Notes under the pieces: model-generated
The model's database searches: none
Seen by the model: the letters and a program-made list of their open reading frames with translations, nothing else
Told to the model about the DNA's origin: nothing
Translations under genes and position numbers: made by a program
Shown here: positions 2,266-33,526 of the stretch, in pieces
How positions within the stretch are numbered: the stretch's first letter is position 1
Layout of the letters: every line of letters begins with the position of its first letter
From: a virus
Taxonomy: Duplodnaviria; Heunggongvirae; Uroviricota; Caudoviricetes
IMG/VR virus record: IMGVR_UViG_2534681936_000014
Coordinates: 1 to 35,002 of that record
Strand: one strand, 5' to 3'
Length of the DNA: 35,002 nt

Positions 2266-2294
2266 TCCCGCCCCTTCGGGGCGGTTATTTTTCT
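2266..2294 (+). terminator. Rho-independent terminator (CCGCCCC-TTCG-GGGCGG then TTATTTTTCT)
   Basis: GC-rich stem with TTCG tetraloop followed by T-run. Confidence 0.7.
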
Positions 2295-2369: not shown

Positions 2370-2395
2370 GGGACTCTTCGGAGTCCCTTTTTTTT
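2370..2395 (+). terminator. Rho-independent terminator (GGGACTC-TTCG-GAGTCCC then T8)
   Basis: Perfect 7-bp stem, TTCG loop, eight consecutive T; second of two tandem terminators 80 bp apart. Confidence 0.75.
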
Positions 2396-2636
2396 ATGCA
2401 ACAATTCGAAGTGTAAGTTTCTTATGTTGTGTAGGTTTAGTTTCATTTCGCCACTCAGGGAATACATGACCCATCATAACCGCATTAGTCTCATCAATCA
2501 GCTTTAAGGACTTTCTCAACGCCTTATTATCAGCTTTAAGAGTTTTAATCTCTGATTCCATCGCTACCATTCTTTCTTTCATTTTGGTAATTTCTAACAT
2601 CAGATTACCCAGAAATTCTTTGTTTTGATTCATCAT
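2394..2636 (-). CDS. Small coiled-coil protein (80 aa), unknown function
   Basis: ATG ATG start at 2636-2631 with GAGGGGTGA RBS; heptad-like sequence LEITKMKERMVAMESEIKTLKADNKALRKSLKL. Confidence 0.45.
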   Translation of the reverse strand: MMNQNKEFLGNLMLEITKMKERMVAMESEIKTLKADNKALRKSLKLIDETNAVMMGHVFPEWRNETKPTQHKKLTLRIVA

Positions 2637-2651
2637 AGATTCACCCCTCTA

Positions 2652-3653
2652 TTAAGCTGCGTATGCGTAGGCGCTGTAGTTGGTGTCGTAGATAGCGTCA
2701 TGCAGTGCCATCTGTGCTTCGCGGATCTCGTCTTCGTTTACTTCAATCTCTTCTTGTTCTTCTTCGGTATCTTCCCAAGTGGTTTTGAATTTAGCCATAA
2801 AGTTATTGCGCAGGGATTCAAAGTTAGTAACAGGTGCGGATTTTTCTTCAACCGGAACTACTACCGGATCAGCTTCTTTCTGTTCTTCCTGTTCTACTTT
2901 TTCACCGTTACCCCAGCGATAGTTAAGGAGTTCTTCCAGTTCTTCATCAATGGATTTTTCTTCAACTGCTTCAACTTCAACCGCTGCTACTTCGAAAGTG
3001 GTTTCCTGCGCTGCCAGTTCAGCTTTCAGAGATGCGTTTTCAGCTTCCAGTTCAGCAATGCGTGCTTTCAGTGCTTCAACTTCGGAAGATTCAACCACTG
3101 CAACTTCTTCTTTAACTTCTTCAACTACTACCGGAGCAACTTCTTTCTGTGCTTCTTTTTTGCAGAAGAAGGAGGAAGTAACCTGTAATGCGTGGTTGTA
3201 GAAGGAACCGCCTTTAGCGGTGTTAACAGTACCAGAAACATCCTTTACAGTGGATTCAGTAGCAACAGTACGGAAGCGTTTTGCGACTTCCTGGGTCTCT
3301 ACGCCGTATTCGTTACGCTTGCTCTTGTGATGCATTACAGCACGGAAGCCGGAAGCAGTTTTAACAACAGCGAGATAGTAAGTTTCATCGGCTTTAACAG
3401 CACGAGCGAAGCAATAAACGGATTCACCTTCTACCAGTGTAGGTTTAACGTGACGTTTGTCGAAACGGTTAGTGATCTGCCATTCAGCACCGTCTTTGAT
3501 GCCAGCATTCTGACGCATTTCGGTCAGAGTCTTACCGGATACTACTTCAAAGGATTTGTCTTGTTTGCTTGCTTTACCTTCCATGACGGTAATGTTCAGT
3601 TTGCCGTTGGATTTAATAAACAGGTTGAAGGTGATGCGCTTAGAATTTTTCAT
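2652..3653 (-). CDS. Hypothetical early protein, 333 aa, globular N-terminal domain plus strongly acidic coiled-coil C-terminal half
   Basis: ATG at 3653-3651 with AGGAG RBS; codon usage typical of highly expressed genes (CGT, CTG, GGT); C-terminal half rich in E/V/A with coiled-coil segment ALKARIAELEAENASLKAEL; no family recognised. Confidence 0.65.
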   Translation of the reverse strand: MKNSKRITFNLFIKSNGKLNITVMEGKASKQDKSFEVVSGKTLTEMRQNAGIKDGAEWQITNRFDKRHVKPTLVEGESVYCFARAVKADETYYLAVVKTASGFRAVMHHKSKRNEYGVETQEVAKRFRTVATESTVKDVSGTVNTAKGGSFYNHALQVTSSFFCKKEAQKEVAPVVVEEVKEEVAVVESSEVEALKARIAELEAENASLKAELAAQETTFEVAAVEVEAVEEKSIDEELEELLNYRWGNGEKVEQEEQKEADPVVVPVEEKSAPVTNFESLRNNFMAKFKTTWEDTEEEQEEIEVNEDEIREAQMALHDAIYDTNYSAYAYAA

Positions 3654-3769
3654 TTATAAATACTCCTGAATGCTGTGTTAGTTTTAATTGTTCATTTCAA
3701 GCCTCCTTTGCTGCAACAAGGGAGGCTTTTTATTTTTAAAGCCATCATATAATTCTCAGTGAAAGTGGA

Positions 3770-3949
3770 TTAACAAACTTGAACGTTAATCTTTATCTGA
3801 ATTTCGTATTTCTTCATTAGCTTATAGAATCCGCTTCTATCAATTCCTTCCTTCTTAAAGAAATTCTCGCCGCCTCGTTCAGTATCGCCATAAAAGCGTT
3901 TAGCAATATCAACAATCATTTCACGAGTAAACTTAACAGGTCTAGCCAT
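3770..3949 (-). CDS. Small HTH DNA-binding protein (Hin/resolvase-type HTH fold), member of a three-gene paralog family
   Basis: ATG at 3949-3947 with GAGGAA RBS (the ORF-track start at 3964 is a TTG); motif RPVKFTREMIVDIAKRFY...GIDRSGFYKLMKKY aligns with the 7015-7245 and 7275-7877 products. Confidence 0.5.
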   Translation of the reverse strand: MARPVKFTREMIVDIAKRFYGDTERGGENFFKKEGIDRSGFYKLMKKYEIQIKINVQVC

Positions 3950-4138
3950 AAGTAGATTCCTCAAATGTGGATTAATAAGGACAATAAAAAGAGCTTTTCG
4001 CCCTCGATACTTCTATTTATAAAAGTCATTTCAGAAAACCCTGTAAAACCACTGTATATCTGATCAGTGGGAGCACGAATTGCTAAAGAGAAGATTAATA
4101 ATTAATCAATTCGTACATTATTCAATCGAAAAGGCACT

Positions 4139-4172
4139 GTATGTTTAACCAGTGCCGTATGTGTTAACAGTG
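4139..4172. repeat. Imperfect tandem direct repeat, 2 x 16 bp (GTATGTTTAACCAGTG / GTATGTGTTAACAGTG), each containing a GTTAAC-like palindrome
   Basis: Read directly at 4139-4154 and 4157-4172 in the ORF-free region. Confidence 0.6.
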
Positions 4173-4306
4173 AATCAGGGGATTTTCAGAAGTGAACAAT
4201 CATTTCATGCATGTATTTATACACGAAAAAATCTTGCTTATCATCAATATGGGGATTGTTTCGAAAATTTCAACCCCTACCAACGAGAAAAAGTATAAAA
4301 TAATCC

Positions 4307-4320
4307 TTGACAGTTGTCAA
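4307..4320. promoter_or_regulatory. Perfect 14-bp palindrome TTGACAGTTGTCAA (operator-like; contains a TTGACA -35-like hexamer on both strands)
   Basis: Read directly; a related inverted repeat TTGTCAA-N6-TTGACAA occurs at 5702-5721. Confidence 0.45.
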
Positions 4321-4345
4321 TACACTTGACCTAAGCGAGAAATGA

Positions 4346-4517
4346 CTATCAAAATTTTTGTGTGAAAATGGCGGATAACGATTATCAACCTTTATAACCT
4401 ATTATAGCACGGCGACCTTTTGATAATTCTTTTTAAATCATGCATTTACAGCGATTTTTGGTGATTTTCCGGTTAAATAATATACAAGAATTTTCTATCA
4501 AAATTTTTGATGAAAAA
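4346..4517. repeat. Pair of 23-bp direct repeats (CTATCAAAATTTTTG[T/A]TGAAAA) 149 bp apart flanking an AT-rich segment with TTATCAA DnaA-box-like motifs
   Basis: Copies at 4346-4368 and 4495-4517 differ at 1-2 positions; GATTATCAAC (4380-4389) and TTGATAATTC (4421-4430) in inverted orientation between them. Confidence 0.55.
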
Positions 4518-4638
4518 CCTACACTACAAACCTACGCTTTAAAGGGATTGGCCTACACTACACTAGCCAGTAAACCTACACTATAACACCCTCAAACCTA
4601 CACTATGAAACCTACACACCTACACTAACCCTACACTT
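4518..4638 (+). repeat. Iteron-like array: 7 or more copies of CCTACACTA (variants CCTACGC, CCTACACACC, CCTACACTT) with irregular 10-30 bp spacing
   Basis: Copies read at 4518, 4531, 4552, 4575, 4597, 4611/4618 and 4629; all in one orientation; no ORF. Confidence 0.7.
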
Positions 4639-5211
4639 CAATCTCATAATTGTATGATCTTGAAAGACATTTCACCCCACAGACCATAGAATATAAAATT
4701 CGAACTAACGTTCTCCTTTTTGCTCGTTTTCTCTCACTACGTTCAAGAAAGATCTCGCAAAAAGAATACGGCGTAGCCGTGCGCGAAGCGCCCATCAACA
4801 CCTTCTAAGACCTGCAAGCAGGATTCGAAAGGGATTGGATAGTTCGCTTCGCTCACGTTCACGCCTACGGCGTTCACTCGCTTTTGAAAGGATTTTCTTA
4901 GAAAGGGATTTAATACTAGTTACTAACTGATTCTAGTAAACGAACGAAGTGAGTAACAATCACTTTCTAGAAAGGTATTGGTATCCCTTCGGGATTGCAA
5001 CCTTCGGTTGCTAAATTGCTTCCTGATTATTATTTCTCCAAAAGAAAGATTCTTATATTCTAAAGATACTTCTTCGTTTTGATGATGATTTAATCAAATC
5101 ATGAAGGAGGGCTTTGCCCGACTGAATACAATCACTCTTTTCATAATAACAAGAATTTTCTCTTTATAAATAATATTAGATTGATTCACTTTCTTTTAGA
5201 GGATTTCCACT

Positions 5212-5559
5212 ATGAACCATAAAATGACTACCACTACTCCTTTCATCCTGTTAGGTTTTGATGCTGATAGCTTCCACAATGACAAGTTAATGAAGATGTT
5301 CCGTGAACGTGGTTACAACATTCTTTTCAACTCTGATGAATCTCATTTCTCTAGTGCATGGTATGCGTTTTGCCGTAATAAGAAGCCGACCATTGTTGTT
5401 AACGTCTTCACCGATGAAGAACGCTTAAAGTACCAGAATCTACCAGCAATTATTGTTCGTGATGATCTGCCGTTTCAAGTCCGTTCCGGTGACATTGATC
5501 TGGGTAGCTTCGTTACTGTCTATGAACTGGATGAAGCAATGTTTAACTACGGCAAATAA
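5212..5559 (+). CDS. Hypothetical protein (115 aa)
   Basis: ATG at 5212 with AGAGGA RBS; the TAA stop is followed in frame by a 39-codon acidic extension (see findings). Confidence 0.5.
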   Translation: MNHKMTTTTPFILLGFDADSFHNDKLMKMFRERGYNILFNSDESHFSSAWYAFCRNKKPTIVVNVFTDEERLKYQNLPAIIVRDDLPFQVRSGDIDLGSFVTVYELDEAMFNYGK

Positions 5560-7014: not shown

Positions 7015-7245
7015 TCAAATTCCTGTTGCTTCTACCATTTCACCGTCAACCTGAACAAAGAATTTCAAATCAACTTTATGGAGTGATTTGTAGAATTGAG
7101 CGATTGAAATACCGTGTTCACTCAATACTTGTTCTTTTTCGGCTTTACCTTTCGGCGCTTGATAGTACGCTTTTACAATCGCTGCCAGTTGTTCACGATT
7201 AAAACGGGCAGGGCGACCGCGAGTAGCTTTAGTAGTCATAGTCAT
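7015..7245 (-). CDS. Small DNA-binding protein: AT-hook-like RGRPAR arm plus Hin/resolvase-type HTH
   Basis: Likely ATG at 7245 or 7239 (ORF-track start at 7272 is a GTG); TRGRPARFNREQLAAIVKAYY...GISIAQFYKSLHK matches the pattern of the Hin DNA-binding domain (GRPRAI...GVSTLYRY) from memory. Confidence 0.55.
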   Translation of the reverse strand: MTMTTKATRGRPARFNREQLAAIVKAYYQAPKGKAEKEQVLSEHGISIAQFYKSLHKVDLKFFVQVDGEMVEATGI

Positions 7246-7274
7246 TTTCTCCAAATTAAAGTGAATGTTCACCT

Positions 7275-7877
7275 TTATTTAGAGGACTTACATTTTATCG
7301 GAAAAAGTTCTCCATCGTCAACCGACATAAAGAACTCTGCCTTAATCCCGTACTTCTTCAACCGTGAATAATATGTACCCCGACTAATATCAACCTTGCG
7401 CAGCACTTCGAAGAACTCTTTAGGATTCCTGTAATAGTGGCTATATCGCACGTTAGCGAGTTCTACAAACAATTCCCTTGTATCACCATAGCCTTTCTTG
7501 AAAGCCACGTTACGATAGCGTGTAATGGCATGATTCAATCTCTTCTGTTTAAGCACTTCCCTGATCGGTGTCCACTGCAACCGATAGATCGGACCGTCAT
7601 CCACTCGATAATAACGCTTGATATCAAAATCAAACCATTCACGGACTCGCTGAAACTCTGTCTGTGATGTTCGGTGCTTCTTAAAGAAGTTGTGAATATC
7701 TGTATATCCCTGATCGCGATACAACTCTATTAAAATTTGCTTCGCTTCCTCGCGACTAAAGCCGGATGTTGTGTAATCAGTCTTCTTGTGATGGTGCTTA
7801 ACTGGCAAACGATATTCATGATCGGTACAAGACAAGGCTAATTCTAATTCATCTCTTTCTTGCTGATTAATTAGCAT
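7275..7877 (-). CDS. Protein with two tandem copies of the same Hin-like HTH module (200 aa)
   Basis: ATG at 7877 with AAAGGGGG RBS; contains [29 protein letters not shown] and [20 protein letters not shown]...[13 protein letters not shown], both similar to the 3770 and 7015 products. Confidence 0.55.
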
Positions 7878-7962
7878 ACAACCCCCTTTGATTAATACCC
7901 GTATTTATCAAAATATCAACAATTTAATAAATACCTTCCTATTTCGTAATGAGGGTAATTAC

Positions 7963-9870
7963 ATGAAACTGATTTCTAATAAGGCAAAATTAAAAAAGAT
8001 TCTCAGAAATGCAGCCAAATATATTACGCCACCGCCTAAACTCCTTCCGTCTGAATGGTGCGAAGCTAATATGGTGCTGGTAGATGGTCCTCAAGCTGGG
8101 GATAAAGTTAAATTGTTGTCATTCCAGAAAGGTATGATTGATGCTCCTTTCCTTGAGAACAAGAAAAAGTATGTCCTGATGACCAGTGCGCAGATCGGAA
8201 AAACTACCATCCTAAACGGTATCCTGTTTAACCAGATGGCTAACGATCCATGCAATATGATTATCGGACAATCAACCGCTAAAGAAATGTCTCAATATCT
8301 CGCTGGTAAGATCCGACCGTCTATCGAAGCATGTGATGCATTAAAAGACGTGGTTACAGACAAGAATGATCGCAATGCAGTTAACAACAATAACCAACTC
8401 CAGCTAAAAACGAATCACTTCCTGTACATGGTATCGCTTACCAGTCCATCAACCCTACGCGGTAAGACCGCAAAGGTTGGATTACTTGACGAAATCGATG
8501 CTGCCACAGCCTCAGAAGAAGGTGATCCGGTGGCACTGGCTGCTAACCGTTTAACTACCTTTGGCGATGAAGGTCGATTAGTCGTATCCAGTACCCCGAC
8601 CAGTAAGCTGGGAAGCATTAACCAGCAATGGTTATCAAGCGATATGCGTATGTTTTTTGTTCCGTGTCCTCATTGCGGGGAACACCAGGTGATCGAGTGG
8701 GAAAACGTACAGTTTGAATGGCGTAACATCGATGGTAAGAACTTACCCGATCCTGATACCGCTCGTTATATTTGCCCCCACTGTAAGAACGCATGGACCG
8801 AAGGGGAACGAATCAGGGCAGTAGCACAAGGCGAGTGGAGAGCAACCCGTGAAAGTGAAGTAGCCGGATTCTGGATCAGTCGTCTGTATTCACCTTTCAG
8901 CACGATCCGCGCTTGTGTGGTTGATTTTAGTCATGCGTGGCAATCCTTTGATTTACAATCATTTTATAACACCGTATTAGGCAAGGTATACGACGATCAG
9001 GACACGGCAGTAGAAGCAAATGAACTGGAACAACTCAAAACAGATGTTTCTATCGAGAATATCCCTGATGACGTGATTTTCTTGTGCTCAGGAATTGACC
9101 AGCAATTAGACCGCGCAGAGTCTACCATCTTAGGTGTAGCGAAAGATAAGGTTTACATTCTGGATCACCGCAGCTTTTACGATCATAACTGTGAACGATA
9201 TGAATCACCTGTTTGGGATCGTCTGGTTAACTTCAAGAAAACCAAATTCTATAACGTTAATGGTGAACGTGTGCCAATGCTCGCCAGCTTCCTTGATACA
9301 TCGAACGGTCGATTCACTCAAGCCGGATACCGTATTTGCGGCAAGTGGAAGAACCTACACGCTATCAAGGGTAGTTCATCTGGTAATGCTCCAGTAATTC
9401 CGGTTAAACCTACCCGCACAGGTGGTCATGAATTGCTTATGTTGGGTGTTAACGTTGGTAAATCCGCTGTTCGTGAAATGCTGGTTAGAAACCTGAAAGA
9501 CAATCCTCACATCGGCTTAGAAATATCAGAAACCGTTCCTGATGATTATCTCGATCAGCTTTTGAGTGAATCCATCAAGCGTACTACTACAGGTGTGCGT
9601 TGGGTGAAAAATCCAGGTAGTACCCGAAACGAGGCTCTCGACTGTCTGGTTTATAGCTATGCTGCTTCTCGCTACGTCCTTTCAAAAATGTCATGGGATA
9701 AACTCATTGCAATGAAAGACAGCTTAAACCGTGTTGTCGAAGAATCCGTAGAAGCTCCTAAATCGCAATCTGACGAGCAAATCGAAGAAACTAAGCCAAT
9801 CACACGACCGCAACGTCAAAACATCGCCAGACGCCCAAATAGAGGCCGTAGCTGGGTAACATCGTTCTAA
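7963..9870 (+). CDS. Terminase large subunit (GpA-like)
   Basis: 635 aa from ATG 7963 with GAGGGTAA RBS (ORF-track start 7888 is a TTG); Walker [12 protein letters not shown]; Cys-rich zinc-ribbon-like segments CPHCGEH...CPHCKNAW; size and gene order match a lambda-type large terminase. Confidence 0.88.
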
Positions 9871-14160: not shown

Positions 14161-14451
14161 ATGTTCAAATTATCAGAATCACAATTAAATCGAATGTTTA
14201 AAAGTGCTCCTGTATTTTCGGTGGAAGGTGGTAAATCAATTCGTGCTTACCATGAAATTACTACTACCGACGAACAAGGGGTAATTACAGAATCAGAATT
14301 TCTATTTTGTCGTGAGGGAGACTTAAATCAGGGTGATGTTGTCATTGTAGACGGTGAACGCTTCAAAGTTCAATACGTTAAGCGCAATGGTGATAATACT
14401 TCTGATTGCTTTATTGCTCGTGCAGGGGGTACACATGCTCGCTACCGTTAA
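14161..14451 (+). CDS. Putative head completion / head-tail connector protein (96 aa)
   Basis: AAAGGGGGTAA RBS; position immediately after the capsid gene; assignment positional only. Confidence 0.5.
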   Translation: MFKLSESQLNRMFKSAPVFSVEGGKSIRAYHEITTTDEQGVITESEFLFCREGDLNQGDVVIVDGERFKVQYVKRNGDNTSDCFIARAGGTHARYR

Positions 14452-14857
14452 TAATATGCCTAGACTGAAAATCAAACGCGCCTTGCAGGATATTATCGAA
14501 CAAGATTTAGGTCTGGCTTTAAACGTAGAACAAACTCAGCAAGGCTTTAGTGATGACGTGGTTTGTTGGATTACCGGAATGAATGAGACTTATACGCGTG
14601 TTCGTGGTGGTAATGCAATGCAAGCTGAATGCGTTATCGAAATGCAGTTATATTCTCAGATTCATGAAACGAAAATTCATGAGGGTATTTGCCAGATAAT
14701 CCAGATTCAGCCGGATAACCCACGTTTTAAAGATTTGGGCTTCGCTATTTCAGATATCACTCCAGTAGCTTCTAATACCGATTATGACGATGATTCTAGT
14801 GATGGGGGTATCGTTGGGACACTTAGCCTTAAATTTTCTTATGTAGCGCGTTTTTAA
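14435..14857 (+). CDS. Putative head-tail joining / tail completion protein (140 aa)
   Basis: ATG at 14435 with AGGGGG RBS, overlapping the upstream gene by 17 nt (the ORF-track start at 14354 lacks an RBS); positional assignment. Confidence 0.5.
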   Translation: MLATVNNMPRLKIKRALQDIIEQDLGLALNVEQTQQGFSDDVVCWITGMNETYTRVRGGNAMQAECVIEMQLYSQIHETKIHEGICQIIQIQPDNPRFKDLGFAISDITPVASNTDYDDDSSDGGIVGTLSLKFSYVARF

Positions 14858-31827: not shown

Positions 31828-33507
31828 TTAAATTCCAAATTCCTGTAATGGACCTGGTATTTCTTCTTCTGGTTTCCAGTTCTTATCTGTCAGCATGTCT
31901 AAACATGGATGCAGAACAAGCCCGTTACTCTCCAGAATCTGCCTATCATTGATAGTCTTCAAATCAACGAAGATCCGGCCTTTCCTCGGTCCTCTTGAAT
32001 TTTCTATTACAACTCTCTGGGTCTTGCCATCGATGTATTCCAGTACAAACAAGTTTTTGTACTTGTCAATCCTGCTACACCCGATCCGTTTTAGAGCTTG
32101 CTTAATCTTAAACCGGACCTTAATGCGATCCTCGTTGTAAACATCTTCTAAATCAAATTCTGCGAGCTTCTCCCAGCCTTGAGAGTCAACAGAATACATT
32201 TCCTCTTCTGCCATCTTAATTTGATTGTAGAGTGTTTCACGCTCGCTATTGAGGGTAGTAATCTGATCGGCTAGCTCCTTCGTTGCTCCTGTCATAGCAG
32301 AAAGGGTAATCAGGTTATCAATCTTGCGTGATATTTCATCAATCTGTACTTTCAAAGCCGGAACCGGATTAGCCTTATCTTCAGCAATCCAGATTTTATC
32401 AGCCAGCAATTGCAATACAGCTTTCTCTAATTGGTCGCCGCGAAAACTCCAGTTTGTATGCACACATTCAATACGACTAGAGCGCATTGCATCGCATGAA
32501 TAACGATATTGGTTAGGCCGTCTGTTTGTTCCTTTCACCTTAACCATAGCGGAACCGCAATGTTCACATTTCAATAGACCAACACCACTAAGCAAGGGAA
32601 TAGGTTTAACTTCTTCTTTGTCTCCAAAGTTACATGCTCTAACACCAATGCTTTTCTTAAGGTGATAAAACTCAGCGTCATCTAGCACACGAGGATAATA
32701 ATCCTTTAACTCATACTTAACGCCATCTACAGAGATTTCCTTGATACCAATCAAAGCGCGGGTATGGAACAACCTTTCAATCATTGCCCGTGACCAGTTT
32801 GAATGCCTCTTGTGACTTGCGGCTGGTGGTGGTGTGTATGTCGCGTTAAGGTGATCCAGTATCTCGGCGGTTGACCGTCCATTCCTGCGTAATTCCACAA
32901 CTTCCTGAACAATAGGGAAGAAGACCGGATGAGGAAGCACATAACCAGATGTGGTATCAGTCCACCACATATTCTTTCCAATTTCCTCGATTGCAACAGC
33001 CGGATTTTGTGGATTTTCTTGATGAGCTTTAATCTTAATCAGTGCGCTTGAGTTAGTACGATTGCGCTTAGTCTGGCTTTCCTCATTACCACGGATGAAT
33101 AAAAGGATGGAGAACATCAGGTCCATCGGGTTAGCGGTAACAGTATCCAGCGAGTAGATCTTGTTATCCATGCCAGTAACAATGGTTATCCCCCTACGGA
33201 TGATTGAAAGGAATAACTCCTGCGCACTGACAATATCGGCACGGGATAAACGGTCCAAGTTTTCGATGAATAGCCAGCTACCAACAGGAACGGATCTACC
33301 TATTGCATCAAGGAAACGAGATAGCGCCCCTGTTTTGGAGTTAGCACCCTTAAACGCAGATACACCCAGATCCTGATAATCATTTACCAGTTCAAGGTCA
33401 TACTTTACCGCAATCTCTCTAGCCATCCTGATTTGTCGTTCATAACTCGAACCATCATTCTGACGCATAGACGAGAAACGAATATACGAATACAGTTTAG
33501 TTTTCAT
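31828..33507 (-). CDS. Large serine recombinase (resolvase-type catalytic domain, recombinase domain, zinc ribbon and coiled-coil C-terminal region)
   Basis: About 559 aa from ATG 33507; N-terminal YSYIRFSSMRQNDGSSYERQ with the catalytic Ser in the position typical of serine recombinases; Cys pairs (CEHCGS...CDAMRSSRIEC) and coiled-coil region downstream. Confidence 0.85.
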   Translation of the reverse strand: MKTKLYSYIRFSSMRQNDGSSYERQIRMAREIAVKYDLELVNDYQDLGVSAFKGANSKTGALSRFLDAIGRSVPVGSWLFIENLDRLSRADIVSAQELFLSIIRRGITIVTGMDNKIYSLDTVTANPMDLMFSILLFIRGNEESQTKRNRTNSSALIKIKAHQENPQNPAVAIEEIGKNMWWTDTTSGYVLPHPVFFPIVQEVVELRRNGRSTAEILDHLNATYTPPPAASHKRHSNWSRAMIERLFHTRALIGIKEISVDGVKYELKDYYPRVLDDAEFYHLKKSIGVRACNFGDKEEVKPIPLLSGVGLLKCEHCGSAMVKVKGTNRRPNQYRYSCDAMRSSRIECVHTNWSFRGDQLEKAVLQLLADKIWIAEDKANPVPALKVQIDEISRKIDNLITLSAMTGATKELADQITTLNSERETLYNQIKMAEEEMYSVDSQGWEKLAEFDLEDVYNEDRIKVRFKIKQALKRIGCSRIDKYKNLFVLEYIDGKTQRVVIENSRGPRKGRIFVDLKTINDRQILESNGLVLHPCLDMLTDKNWKPEEEIPGPLQEFGI

Positions 33508-33526
33508 ACCATTTCCAAACAAAAAC

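Follow-up and report, generated by a model that had tools for sequence, protein, structure and literature searches.

A conserved, hairpin-rich non-coding element beside an iteron array, between the divergent early operons of an Escherichia coli prophage

The window analyzed here comprises 35,002 nucleotides (nt) of the IMG/VR virus record IMGVR_UViG_2534681936_000014 (Caudoviricetes) and represents a temperate siphovirus-type prophage of Escherichia coli of approximately 35.5 kb. The sole large region free of open reading frames (ORFs) in this prophage spans 3965-5211 between two divergent early operons. A preliminary description, made from the letters alone, proposed that 4770-5010 in this region is a candidate structured non-coding RNA (ncRNA), either a small RNA or a processed leader. 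We found that the stretch 4770-5010 is a genuine, conserved, and structured non-coding element, albeit a member of no known RNA family. The element is built of a GC-rich compound palindrome and a repeat module ending in twin hairpins, and an iteron array lies to its left. Approximately 60 related loci (designated by L and a number below) were collected from IMG/VR, metagenomes, and E. coli genomes, and several cassette types were recognized among them. The features of the window, which carries cassette A, are listed below.

4515-4640, plus strand: iteron array, eight copies of (A)CCTACAC(T) (ACCTACAC) in the same orientation, at 4517, 4530, 4551, 4574, 4596, 4610, 4618, and 4629
4641-4767: low-GC spacer (34.6% GC), of which 4679-4767 is almost invariant
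4664-4699, plus strand: weak sigma-70-like hexamers in the spacer
4716-4734/4746-4764: inverted repeat in the spacer
4768-4780: hairpin 1, ACGGC-GTA-GCCGT, followed on the minus strand by ATTCTTTTTG and terminator-like in the scan
4781-4791: mini-hairpin GCGC-GAA-GCGC, the inner part of the left arm (4770-4790) of the inverted repeat
4792-4844: palindrome interior, with CCTTCTAAGACC (4801-4812), the hairpin CCTGC-AA-GCAGG (4811-4822), and the repeat copy TTCGAAAGGGATTGG (4824-4838)
4845-4865: right arm CGCTTCGCTCACGTTCACGCC of the inverted repeat, overlapping hairpin 3
4861-4873: hairpin 3, ACGCC-TAC-GGCGT, followed by TCACTCGCTTTTG
4883, 4898, and 4966, plus strand: repeat copies TTTTGAAAGGATTTTC, TCTTAGAAAGGGATTTA, and TTCTAGAAAGGTATTGG, respectively, in the module 4878-4981 that is common to cassettes A and B
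4915-4937: hairpin ACTAG...CTAGT in the same module
4959..4930, minus strand: weak promoter-like site TTGTTA-18-TAGAAT
4963-4974: palindrome CTTTCTAGAAAG in the same module
4983-5011: twin GC hairpins ATCCC-TTC-GGGAT and GCAACC-TTC-GGTTGC (loop TGC in L010 and L011)
5021-5119: right context, with the unit 5058-5098 (TTCTTCGTTTTGATGATGATTTAATCAAA) and then the hairpin GGGC-TTT-GCCC (5109-5119)
5146-5174, plus strand: promoter-like site, found in every cassette type, that precedes the first rightward gene

The element is carried by bacterial chromosomes: the segment 4300-5250 (951 nt) is 100% identical to those of E. coli FDAARGOS_946 and O55:H7 DEC5A, and matches to the flagged stretch were found in 58 of the 5,426 complete E. 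coli genomes. The preliminary description was correct in regarding the stretch as ORF-free. The overlapping ORFs of at least 40 amino acids (aa) are not conserved, as L017 carries a 2-nt frameshifting insertion and L016 a 1-nt deletion. The small ORFs at 4631-4801 (minus), 4650-4808 (plus), and 4743-4877 (minus) were discarded on account of the same two changes, and two of the three substitutions in ORF 4743-4877 are non-synonymous. Likewise, GGTCTTAGAAGG was considered as a ribosome-binding site and rejected, since no conserved start codon follows it in the other cassettes.

The stretch had been portrayed as GC-richer than its surroundings, which is true for 4768-4873 (57.5% GC) but not for 4874-5011 (37.7%, against 35.5% for the whole ORF-free region). 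All four copies of GAAAGG that had been reported are present, on the plus strand at 4827, 4886, 4901, and 4970, although the copy placed at 4838 was misplaced by approximately 10 nt. By a Poisson estimate, four GAAAGG within 150 nt have a probability of approximately 6e-7 per position and 5e-4 window-wide. The motif GAAAGGNATT, for which 0.48 matches are expected in 35 kb, is matched exactly three times, each time within the flagged stretch. Further copies of the extended motif TCTTAGAAAGGGATT were found at 4541, at 4662 (degenerate in the window, better in relatives), and on the minus strand at 4801; the sites of the TCTTAGAAAGGGATT type make up a seven-copy family. The short hairpins GCGC-GAA-GCGC, ACGCC-TAC-GGCGT, and CCTGC-AA-GCAGG are all found as described. 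On the other hand, the two supposed TTCG tetraloops are in fact TTC triloops, with stems of 5 bp (4983-4995) and 6 bp (4997-5011). Altogether, 4 of the 13 GC-rich triloop hairpins with stems of at least 5 bp in the window are located in 4768-5011.

Hairpin 1, a 21-nt inverted repeat (4770-4790/4845-4865) with 81% complementarity, and the iteron array were overlooked in the preliminary description. In 4768-4873, a hairpin, GCGC-GAA-GCGC, 54 nt, the complementary arm, and another hairpin follow one another. The 21-nt inverted repeat joins the GC hairpins, and therefore the GC-rich island is regarded as a single compound palindrome of 106 bp, which is flanked by the A-run CAAAAAGAATAC on the left and the T-run CGCTTTTG on the right. 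The former is the 3' end of the low-GC spacer and makes, on the minus strand, a U-rich tail after hairpin 1. There is a small flip inside the palindrome: cassettes B, C, and D carry the reverse complement of the 12-mer CCTTCTAAGACC. We also noticed that L040 (4013-4094), a GC-rich metagenomic viral contig, has an intergenic nested palindrome of 150 bp with GCGCGAAGCGC and TTCGCTTCGCTCAC as its inner arms. This two-arm match is probably an unrelated palindromic element or due to chance; approximately 0.35 chance matches are expected.

Predicted folds of 4760-5020 were better than those of shuffled sequences on both strands, with z-scores of -3.3 (plus) and -6.3 (minus). In each of the four cassette types, the better fold is that of the minus strand; the scores for cassette A were -3.9, -3.4, and -4.7 on the minus strand against -2.8, -1.9, and -2.8 on the plus strand. 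No known RNA family was recovered: an Rfam 15 search yielded no match at gathering scores in the whole window. Permissive searching of 3600-5300 gave E-values of 1.8-9 at best, none below 1, and bit scores that all fell far short of the thresholds. The sole permissive match touching the stretch, at its right edge, was JA04 (4997-5067), with 22 bits against the 81 required. The view that the stretch is not a transfer RNA (tRNA) agrees with the ARAGORN tRNA/tmRNA scan, in which nothing was called in the stretch. The sole call in the window, a 91-nt tRNA-Glu on the minus strand at 14622-14712, lies within ORF 14354-14857 of the structural region and is suggested to be a false positive because of its length and position.

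Neither a megablast search of 4300-5250 against phages nor a blastn search of 4500-5030 against plasmids returned a match. A distant blastn search against phages gave a sole match outside the prophage family, namely a 75-nt unit (5021-5098) of the type found in phage RB49. The 41 nt of 5058-5098 share 90% identity with a unit repeated twice in the ORF165c/ORF164c intergenic region of RB49 (413 bp; L046, RB49 97089-98363), where both copies read TTTGATTAAATTATGATCAAAACGAAGA. The unit is inverted in L055 and L057. The sense strand of the RB49 region carries ACTCC-GTA-GGAGT, directly followed by CGCGAAGCG and further on by GCTCGCTTCCGC-TAC-GCGGA, in the same order as in 4768-4873. In short, the arrangement in RB49 is a GTA hairpin with CGCGAAGCG, then GCTCGCTTC with a TAC hairpin.

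Both flanking hairpins of the palindrome thus have counterparts in cassette B and RB49. The analogues of hairpin 1 are GGGC-GTA/TTT-GCCC in cassette B and ACTCC-GTA-GGAGT in RB49, and those of hairpin 3 are GCCAC-TGC-GTGGC and TCCGC-TAC-GCGGA, respectively. The left-arm 12-mer TGCGCGAAGCGC and the right-arm TCGCTTCGCTCAC are identical in cassette B, and the former corresponds to CGCGAAGCG in RB49. In the alignment of hairpins 1 and 3 across cassette A, cassette B, and RB49, 94% of the cells are paired, 6 of the 10 pairs have changed on both sides, and none of 500 shuffles was as good. Pairing has thus been kept through compensatory change. This alignment was assembled by hand from positional analogues, with segments picked for forming hairpins, and therefore shows retained pairing capacity and nothing more. 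A scan of genome contigs with the o115 alignment found no more distant relatives, and a metagenome scan recovered the same cassette types only. As the RB49-like contigs are near-identical and distant relatives are absent, covariation statistics within one cassette type are impossible.

The related loci form a mosaic with regional breakpoints near 4021, 4514, 4878, and 5025, and 4770-5010 makes up the right-hand portion of this regulatory mosaic. Nucleotide diversity in type A is 0.1-0.3 in the flanks but only 0.004-0.03 in 4700-4900, a level as low as that of the N-terminal domain of o333, a protein encoded in the leftward operon (see below). Because this drop matches that of the o333 N-domain, we place the palindrome in a type-specific block together with the iterons. 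The block of cassette B differs in sequence but retains both arms, the flanking hairpins at either side, and an inverted copy of the 12-mer CCTTCTAAGACC. A simple 16-nt GC hairpin is all that occupies this slot, between AAAAGAATATTAT and CTGTTTTGAAA, in cassettes C and D. Thus, what the slot requires is a stable stem-loop, not a particular sequence.

All six non-coding GC triloop hairpins read C-GNA-G on one strand or the other, and the two type A substitutions inside their loops (4786 and 5004) both fall on the middle loop base. The loop of the mini-hairpin 4781-4791 is GTA in L010, L011, L016, and L017 (GAA to GTA), and the other variant changes GAA to GCA when read on the minus strand. The sole stem change found in type A, G4863A in L009, is compatible with a G-U wobble on the minus strand. 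To the right, the module 4878-4981 is replaced by repeats of the ATCACTTTGAAGA type in L003, L006, and L056. A single hairpin, GACGCTC-(AGG/TGGA/TAGA)-GAGCGTC, stands in place of the twin hairpins in L003, L006, L056, and L057, and it is terminator-like on the plus strand in the scan. These four loci thus carry a related repeat-rich version of 4878-5025 with one terminal GC hairpin. One hairpin of L003, GCGCCCTGCGGGGCGC (5531-5546), appears as its reverse complement in L056 (about 162-177). The flipped 12-mer, the flipped hairpin of L056, the flipped unit of L055 and L057, the palindromic symmetry, and the C-GNA-G reading common to the six triloops argue for DNA sites or sequence-neutral stems.

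The genes on either side of the ORF-free region are given here, as one of them covaries with the iterons.

2394-2636, minus strand: o80, leftward operon
2652-3653, minus strand: o333, leftward operon, a 333-aa orphan with a variable N-terminal domain of ~170 aa, a coiled coil, and an acidic tail
3770-3964, minus strand: o64, leftward operon
5212-5559, plus strand: first gene of the rightward operon, with its own promoter-like site and ribosome-binding site

The iteron motif has 11 matches in the window against 2.1 expected, seven of them inside the array. The cores are spaced by 21, 23, 22, and 22 bp, 22-bp spacings recur in cassette B, and the copy number in relatives ranges from 6 to 11. In cassette B, TTGCCCCYGAA repeats take the place of ACCTACAC, and an unrelated-looking 313-aa protein that of o333. 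L003 possesses two other repeat families and two other proteins (371 and 363 aa). The three alternates share the architecture of o333, in that the N-terminal ~170 residues vary, a coiled coil and an acidic stretch are present, and the C-terminal ends are similar. Among ~50 loci holding both, a count that includes some re-fetches of the same contig, the iteron type covaries with the type of the o333 N-domain without exception: ACCTACAC occurs with o333, TTGCCCCYGAA with the 313-aa protein, and the two repeat families of L003 with its two proteins. The association is independent of the variable segment lying between the array and the gene. The palindrome has been swapped as part of a cassette with the iterons and o333. 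Because of this covariation, we infer that o333 binds the iterons, and o333 is presumed to be the iteron-binding specificity protein. Type-specific binding of o333 and the 313-aa alternate to the ACCTACAC and TTGCCCCTGAA arrays, respectively, is predicted.

Neither o333 nor its 64- and 115-aa neighbors matched a family in Pfam or PHROG, and a homologue search for o333 returned Escherichia and Shigella hypothetical proteins only. In an exhaustive HMMER search of 1.84e9 representatives, three true relatives were recovered. A fold search found no structural neighbor, and the sequence and fold searches revealed no similarity to known initiators, helicase loaders, or primases. The o333-type protein family is almost restricted to Escherichia and Shigella. 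Two other roles for the iterons were dismissed. Binding by the small terminase conflicts with a small-terminase-like (TerS-like) protein that is 93-100% identical across iteron types. An autoregulatory iteron at the leftward promoter conflicts with the sequence near 4274, which is CCCCTACCA in both types A and C and the near-same CCCTTACCA in type B.

Altogether, we propose, with a probability of roughly 40%, that 4770-5010 supplies cis-acting stem-loop barriers and protein-binding repeats, which keep the rightward early promoter apart from the array of iterons, whether this array serves in control or as an origin. The stem-loops would form in any transcript crossing them and act as barriers to transcription. 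Leftward transcripts would stop at hairpin 1 and AUUCUUUUU (about 4757-4767), and in the rightward direction the palindrome and the twin hairpins (about 5011-5030) would halt or attenuate transcription. The iteron array would thereby be insulated from the promoter of the rightward early operon (~5146-5174). A protein that all cassette types have in common would bind the GAAAGG-type repeats as its DNA sites. We infer hairpin termination and protein binding by the repeats from the sequence; the prophage context, the folds, the terminator-like features, among them a plus-strand TTC-triloop hairpin elsewhere in the window (2268-2284), the conservation of pairing over sequence, the independence of orientation, and the precedent of RB49 all speak for such barriers.

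In phages of the RB49 type, intergenic cassettes of a promoter and a stem-loop, termed promoter-early stem-loops (PeSLs), mediate module shuffling, and their stem-loops have been shown to terminate transcription (Arbiol et al., 2010; PMC2839356). The PeSLs of RB49/phi1-type T4-like phages are short and intergenic, combine promoters with transcription-blocking stem-loops, and, like the window element, border swapped segments and are reused in different contexts. They differ in being ~100 bp long with a consensus sigma-70 promoter and often a polyG/polyC stem (PMC2839356), whereas the window element belongs to a temperate siphovirus, adjoins iterons, and takes the form of a compound palindrome of 106 bp. 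Unlike a PeSL, neither 5021-5098 nor the matched RB49 stretch contains a promoter scoring at least 9/12. The element also resembles bidirectional intrinsic terminators, in that a GC-rich stem-loop lies between the A-run CAAAAAGAATAC and the T-run CGCTTTTG and the slot is present in all cassettes with different stems. It departs from them in its short U-runs, mostly 4-11 nt from the stems, and in forming a 106-nt branched palindrome rather than a simple hairpin.

Several observations weigh against barriers as the whole explanation. The 106-bp palindrome is near-invariant in type A (diversity of 0.004-0.03) and is more elaborate and constrained than a terminator needs to be, and its inheritance alongside the iterons and o333 points to a function linked to that protein. 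Hairpin 1 with ATTCTTTTTG (4780..4768, minus) is the only clear terminator-like site in cassette A; the terminator scan flagged neither hairpin 3 or 6 of the plus strand nor the minus strand of cassette B, and in several cases 4-11 nt separate the U-runs from the stems. The matches to promoters are weak (9/12) and no commoner than in shuffled sequences. Moreover, the call for conserved pairing rests on hand-picked, hairpin-forming segments.

The co-inheritance just mentioned would be accommodated if the low-GC spacer, the GC palindrome, and iterons to which o333 binds made up a replication origin, with the hairpins acting as extruded or single-stranded DNA. Such an origin may resemble either ori-lambda (iterons, an AT-rich stretch, and a palindrome) or plasmid origins with hairpin priming signals on single-stranded DNA. 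Iteron-type origins include ori-lambda with its O protein and the plasmid origins of P1, R6K, and RK2, and a swappable N-domain matched to iterons is the pattern of lambdoid O proteins. The window shares with them same-direction repeats of ~22-bp period and variable copy number, an exact covariation of these repeats with the N-domain of a presumed cognate protein while the other end of the protein stays similar across types, and an adjacent palindrome, which is here inherited in the same low-diversity block. It differs in that o333 is an orphan without O/Rep similarity and that the iterons lie outside genes, 0.9 kb from the o333 gene. The prophage has no recognizable replication gene or second large non-coding region, which would fit an origin at this place. 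The six C-GNA-G triloops with variants in the middle base alone are reminiscent of d(GCGAAGC)-type GNA loops, which are unusually stable DNA mini-hairpins, and of the hairpin promoters of phage N4; GCGAAGC and GCGTAGC cores are present here. In contrast, no N4-type virion RNA polymerase is found, and the strand that reads GNA is not the same for all hairpins. The o333 protein is unlike any initiator, helicase loader, or primase. No DnaA box (TTWTNCACA) was found in the region, nor was a distinct AT-rich element beside the iterons: the spacer, with 34.6% GC, is not AT-richer than the rest of the ORF-free region (32-35%; 32.2% in 3965-4514). RB49 has the same hairpin arrangement without iterons, and a hairpin of the same style, the TTC-triloop hairpin at 2268-2284 followed by TTATTTTT, looks like an obvious plain RNA terminator on the plus strand elsewhere in the window. 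We therefore regard an origin as possible, though somewhat unlikely.

If the element acts as RNA, its strand becomes decisive. A leftward small RNA (sRNA) of ~165 nt would start near 4923, from the promoter-like site at 4959..4930, and end at hairpin 1 and AUUCUUUUU (~4760), with CU-rich AUCCCUUUC motifs in the 5' part and a long hairpin in the 3' part, and would serve as an antisense or trans regulator. The better minus-strand folds in all four cassette types agree with this, as do the minus-strand terminator-like site in cassette A, the U-rich tails after the last GC hairpin on the minus strand in cassettes B, C, and D, and the minus-strand promoter-like sites at an analogous place in A, B, and L003 (5608..5580). 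The two informative non-Watson-Crick positions, G4863A in L009 and a C-A in the extended hairpin 3 of cassette B, both become G-U on the minus strand. Nevertheless, the promoter scores 9/12 and its -35 element is lost in L017, the hairpin order on the RB49 sense strand is that of the window plus strand, and there is neither an Rfam match, nor an identified target, nor more than scant variation for covariation; we consider such an sRNA unlikely. The RNA put forward in the preliminary description would run on the plus strand, as a processed leader from about 4326-4355 or 4664-4699 or as an RNA ending at the twin hairpins. The order of the RB49 hairpins, the site TTGACC-18-CAAAAT at 4326-4355 (kept in L003), the weaker sites at 4664-4699, the L003 replacement hairpin scoring as a plus-strand terminator, the terminator-like TTC-loop hairpin on that strand at 2268-2284, and the z-score of -3.3 all suit a plus-strand RNA. 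The first rightward gene has its own promoter-like site (5146-5174) in all cassette types, and repeat copies and modules occur in flipped orientation. No convincing promoter-terminator pair framing a plus-strand RNA was found in the scan. Thus, of the ncRNA claim, a non-coding, strongly conserved, and hairpin-forming stretch stands, while a stand-alone or processed plus-strand RNA is possible but not the best-supported reading, because of the lack of an Rfam match and of such a pair, the better folding of the minus strand everywhere, the palindromes, the flips, and the co-inheritance with the iterons; we judge it decidedly unlikely. A cos-type packaging region, in which the GC-rich palindrome is the nicking site and the GAAAGG repeats are small-terminase sites, is very improbable. 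The large terminase is of the lambda gpA type, and exactly those loci that have a replaced 4878-5025, L003 and L006, show a TerS-like protein (1139-1693) with only 51-52% identity. This covariation, however, stems from one divergent lineage that is different in everything to its left, and the TerS-like protein keeps 93-100% identity across switches of the iteron type. In addition, the terminase genes are at least 3 kb away on either side, and the analogue in RB49 belongs to a T4-type phage with headful packaging.

Other known systems bear less resemblance to the element. The phage immunity and antisense RNAs, such as P4 CI, P1/P7 c4, P22 sar, and lambda OOP, are short structured RNAs of temperate-phage control regions. 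The RNA of P1/P7 is type-specific, as 4700-4877 of the window is specific to the cassette type. The element differs from these RNAs in having no sequence or Rfam similarity to them and no identified target repeats complementary to it. A retron msr-msd RNA was rejected, as no neighbor with a reverse transcriptase domain was found (Pfam and PHROG; 333-, 64-, and 115-aa proteins). A mimic of CRISPR repeats, whether a solitary repeat or an RNA anti-CRISPR, was also rejected: no CRISPR-DR family in Rfam matches up to an E-value of 10, and the likeness of GTTCAC-GCC-TAC-GGC-GTTCAC to the I-F repeat is by eye only. Type III toxin-antitoxin repeats and nut/boxA-boxB sites were considered, and no supporting protein was found.

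With regard to the remainder of the prophage, the structural genes encode a lambda gpA-type large terminase, a portal, a protease-capsid fusion, a tape measure, a J-type tip protein, and tail fibers. An endolysin gene and a large serine recombinase (integrase) gene (31828-33522, minus strand) are also present. Comparison of the window proteins with Pfam and PHROG identified no replication or repressor gene in this compact prophage. The prophage, integrated by this serine recombinase, interrupts hicB in some strains, such as FDAARGOS_946, and ycdX is the site in one relative; a literature search on a serine-recombinase prophage integrated in hicB gave nothing relevant. The small-terminase-like gene (1139-1693) and the gpA-type large terminase gene (7888-9870) are separated by 6 kb, with the early and ORF-free regions between them. 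The 64-, 85-, and 200-aa proteins (3770-3964, 7015-7272, and 7275-7877, all on the minus strand) share a C-terminal motif of the type FF..G(I/S)....FY.L.KKY and look like a paralogous family of putative small DNA-binding regulators. The type of the 64-aa protein varies independently of the iteron type. Two copies of an operator-like palindromic site, CACTGTAT-N7-8-CAGTG, adjoin o64 (4045-4069 and 4130-4154). A near-consensus leftward promoter, TTGACA-17-TATACT (4320..4292), lies inside the palindrome TTGACAGTTGTCAA and is kept in three cassette types.

If the stem-loops and repeats are terminators or insulators only, they are ordinary phage regulatory DNA, and the value of this study is a corrected annotation, as the stretch is then neither an ncRNA gene nor a tRNA. 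Even so, the matched swaps of an iteron array and an orphan N-domain in E. coli prophages provide a clean natural specificity-swap system, and the putative DNA-binding fold of o333 is one that neither sequence nor structure searches could place. It is also conceivable, though we find it fairly doubtful, that the iterons, the type-specific palindrome, and the o333 family constitute an undescribed phage origin of replication or copy control, with an initiator unrelated to Rep/O and GNA mini-hairpin signals shared with the RB49 group. As an origin and its initiator, the system would represent a new initiator family and would explain how a compact phage without recognizable replication genes replicates. 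With the small modules held in common with RB49-type lytic phages, mobile regulatory cassettes become a concept that covers temperate siphoviruses as well as T4-like phages.

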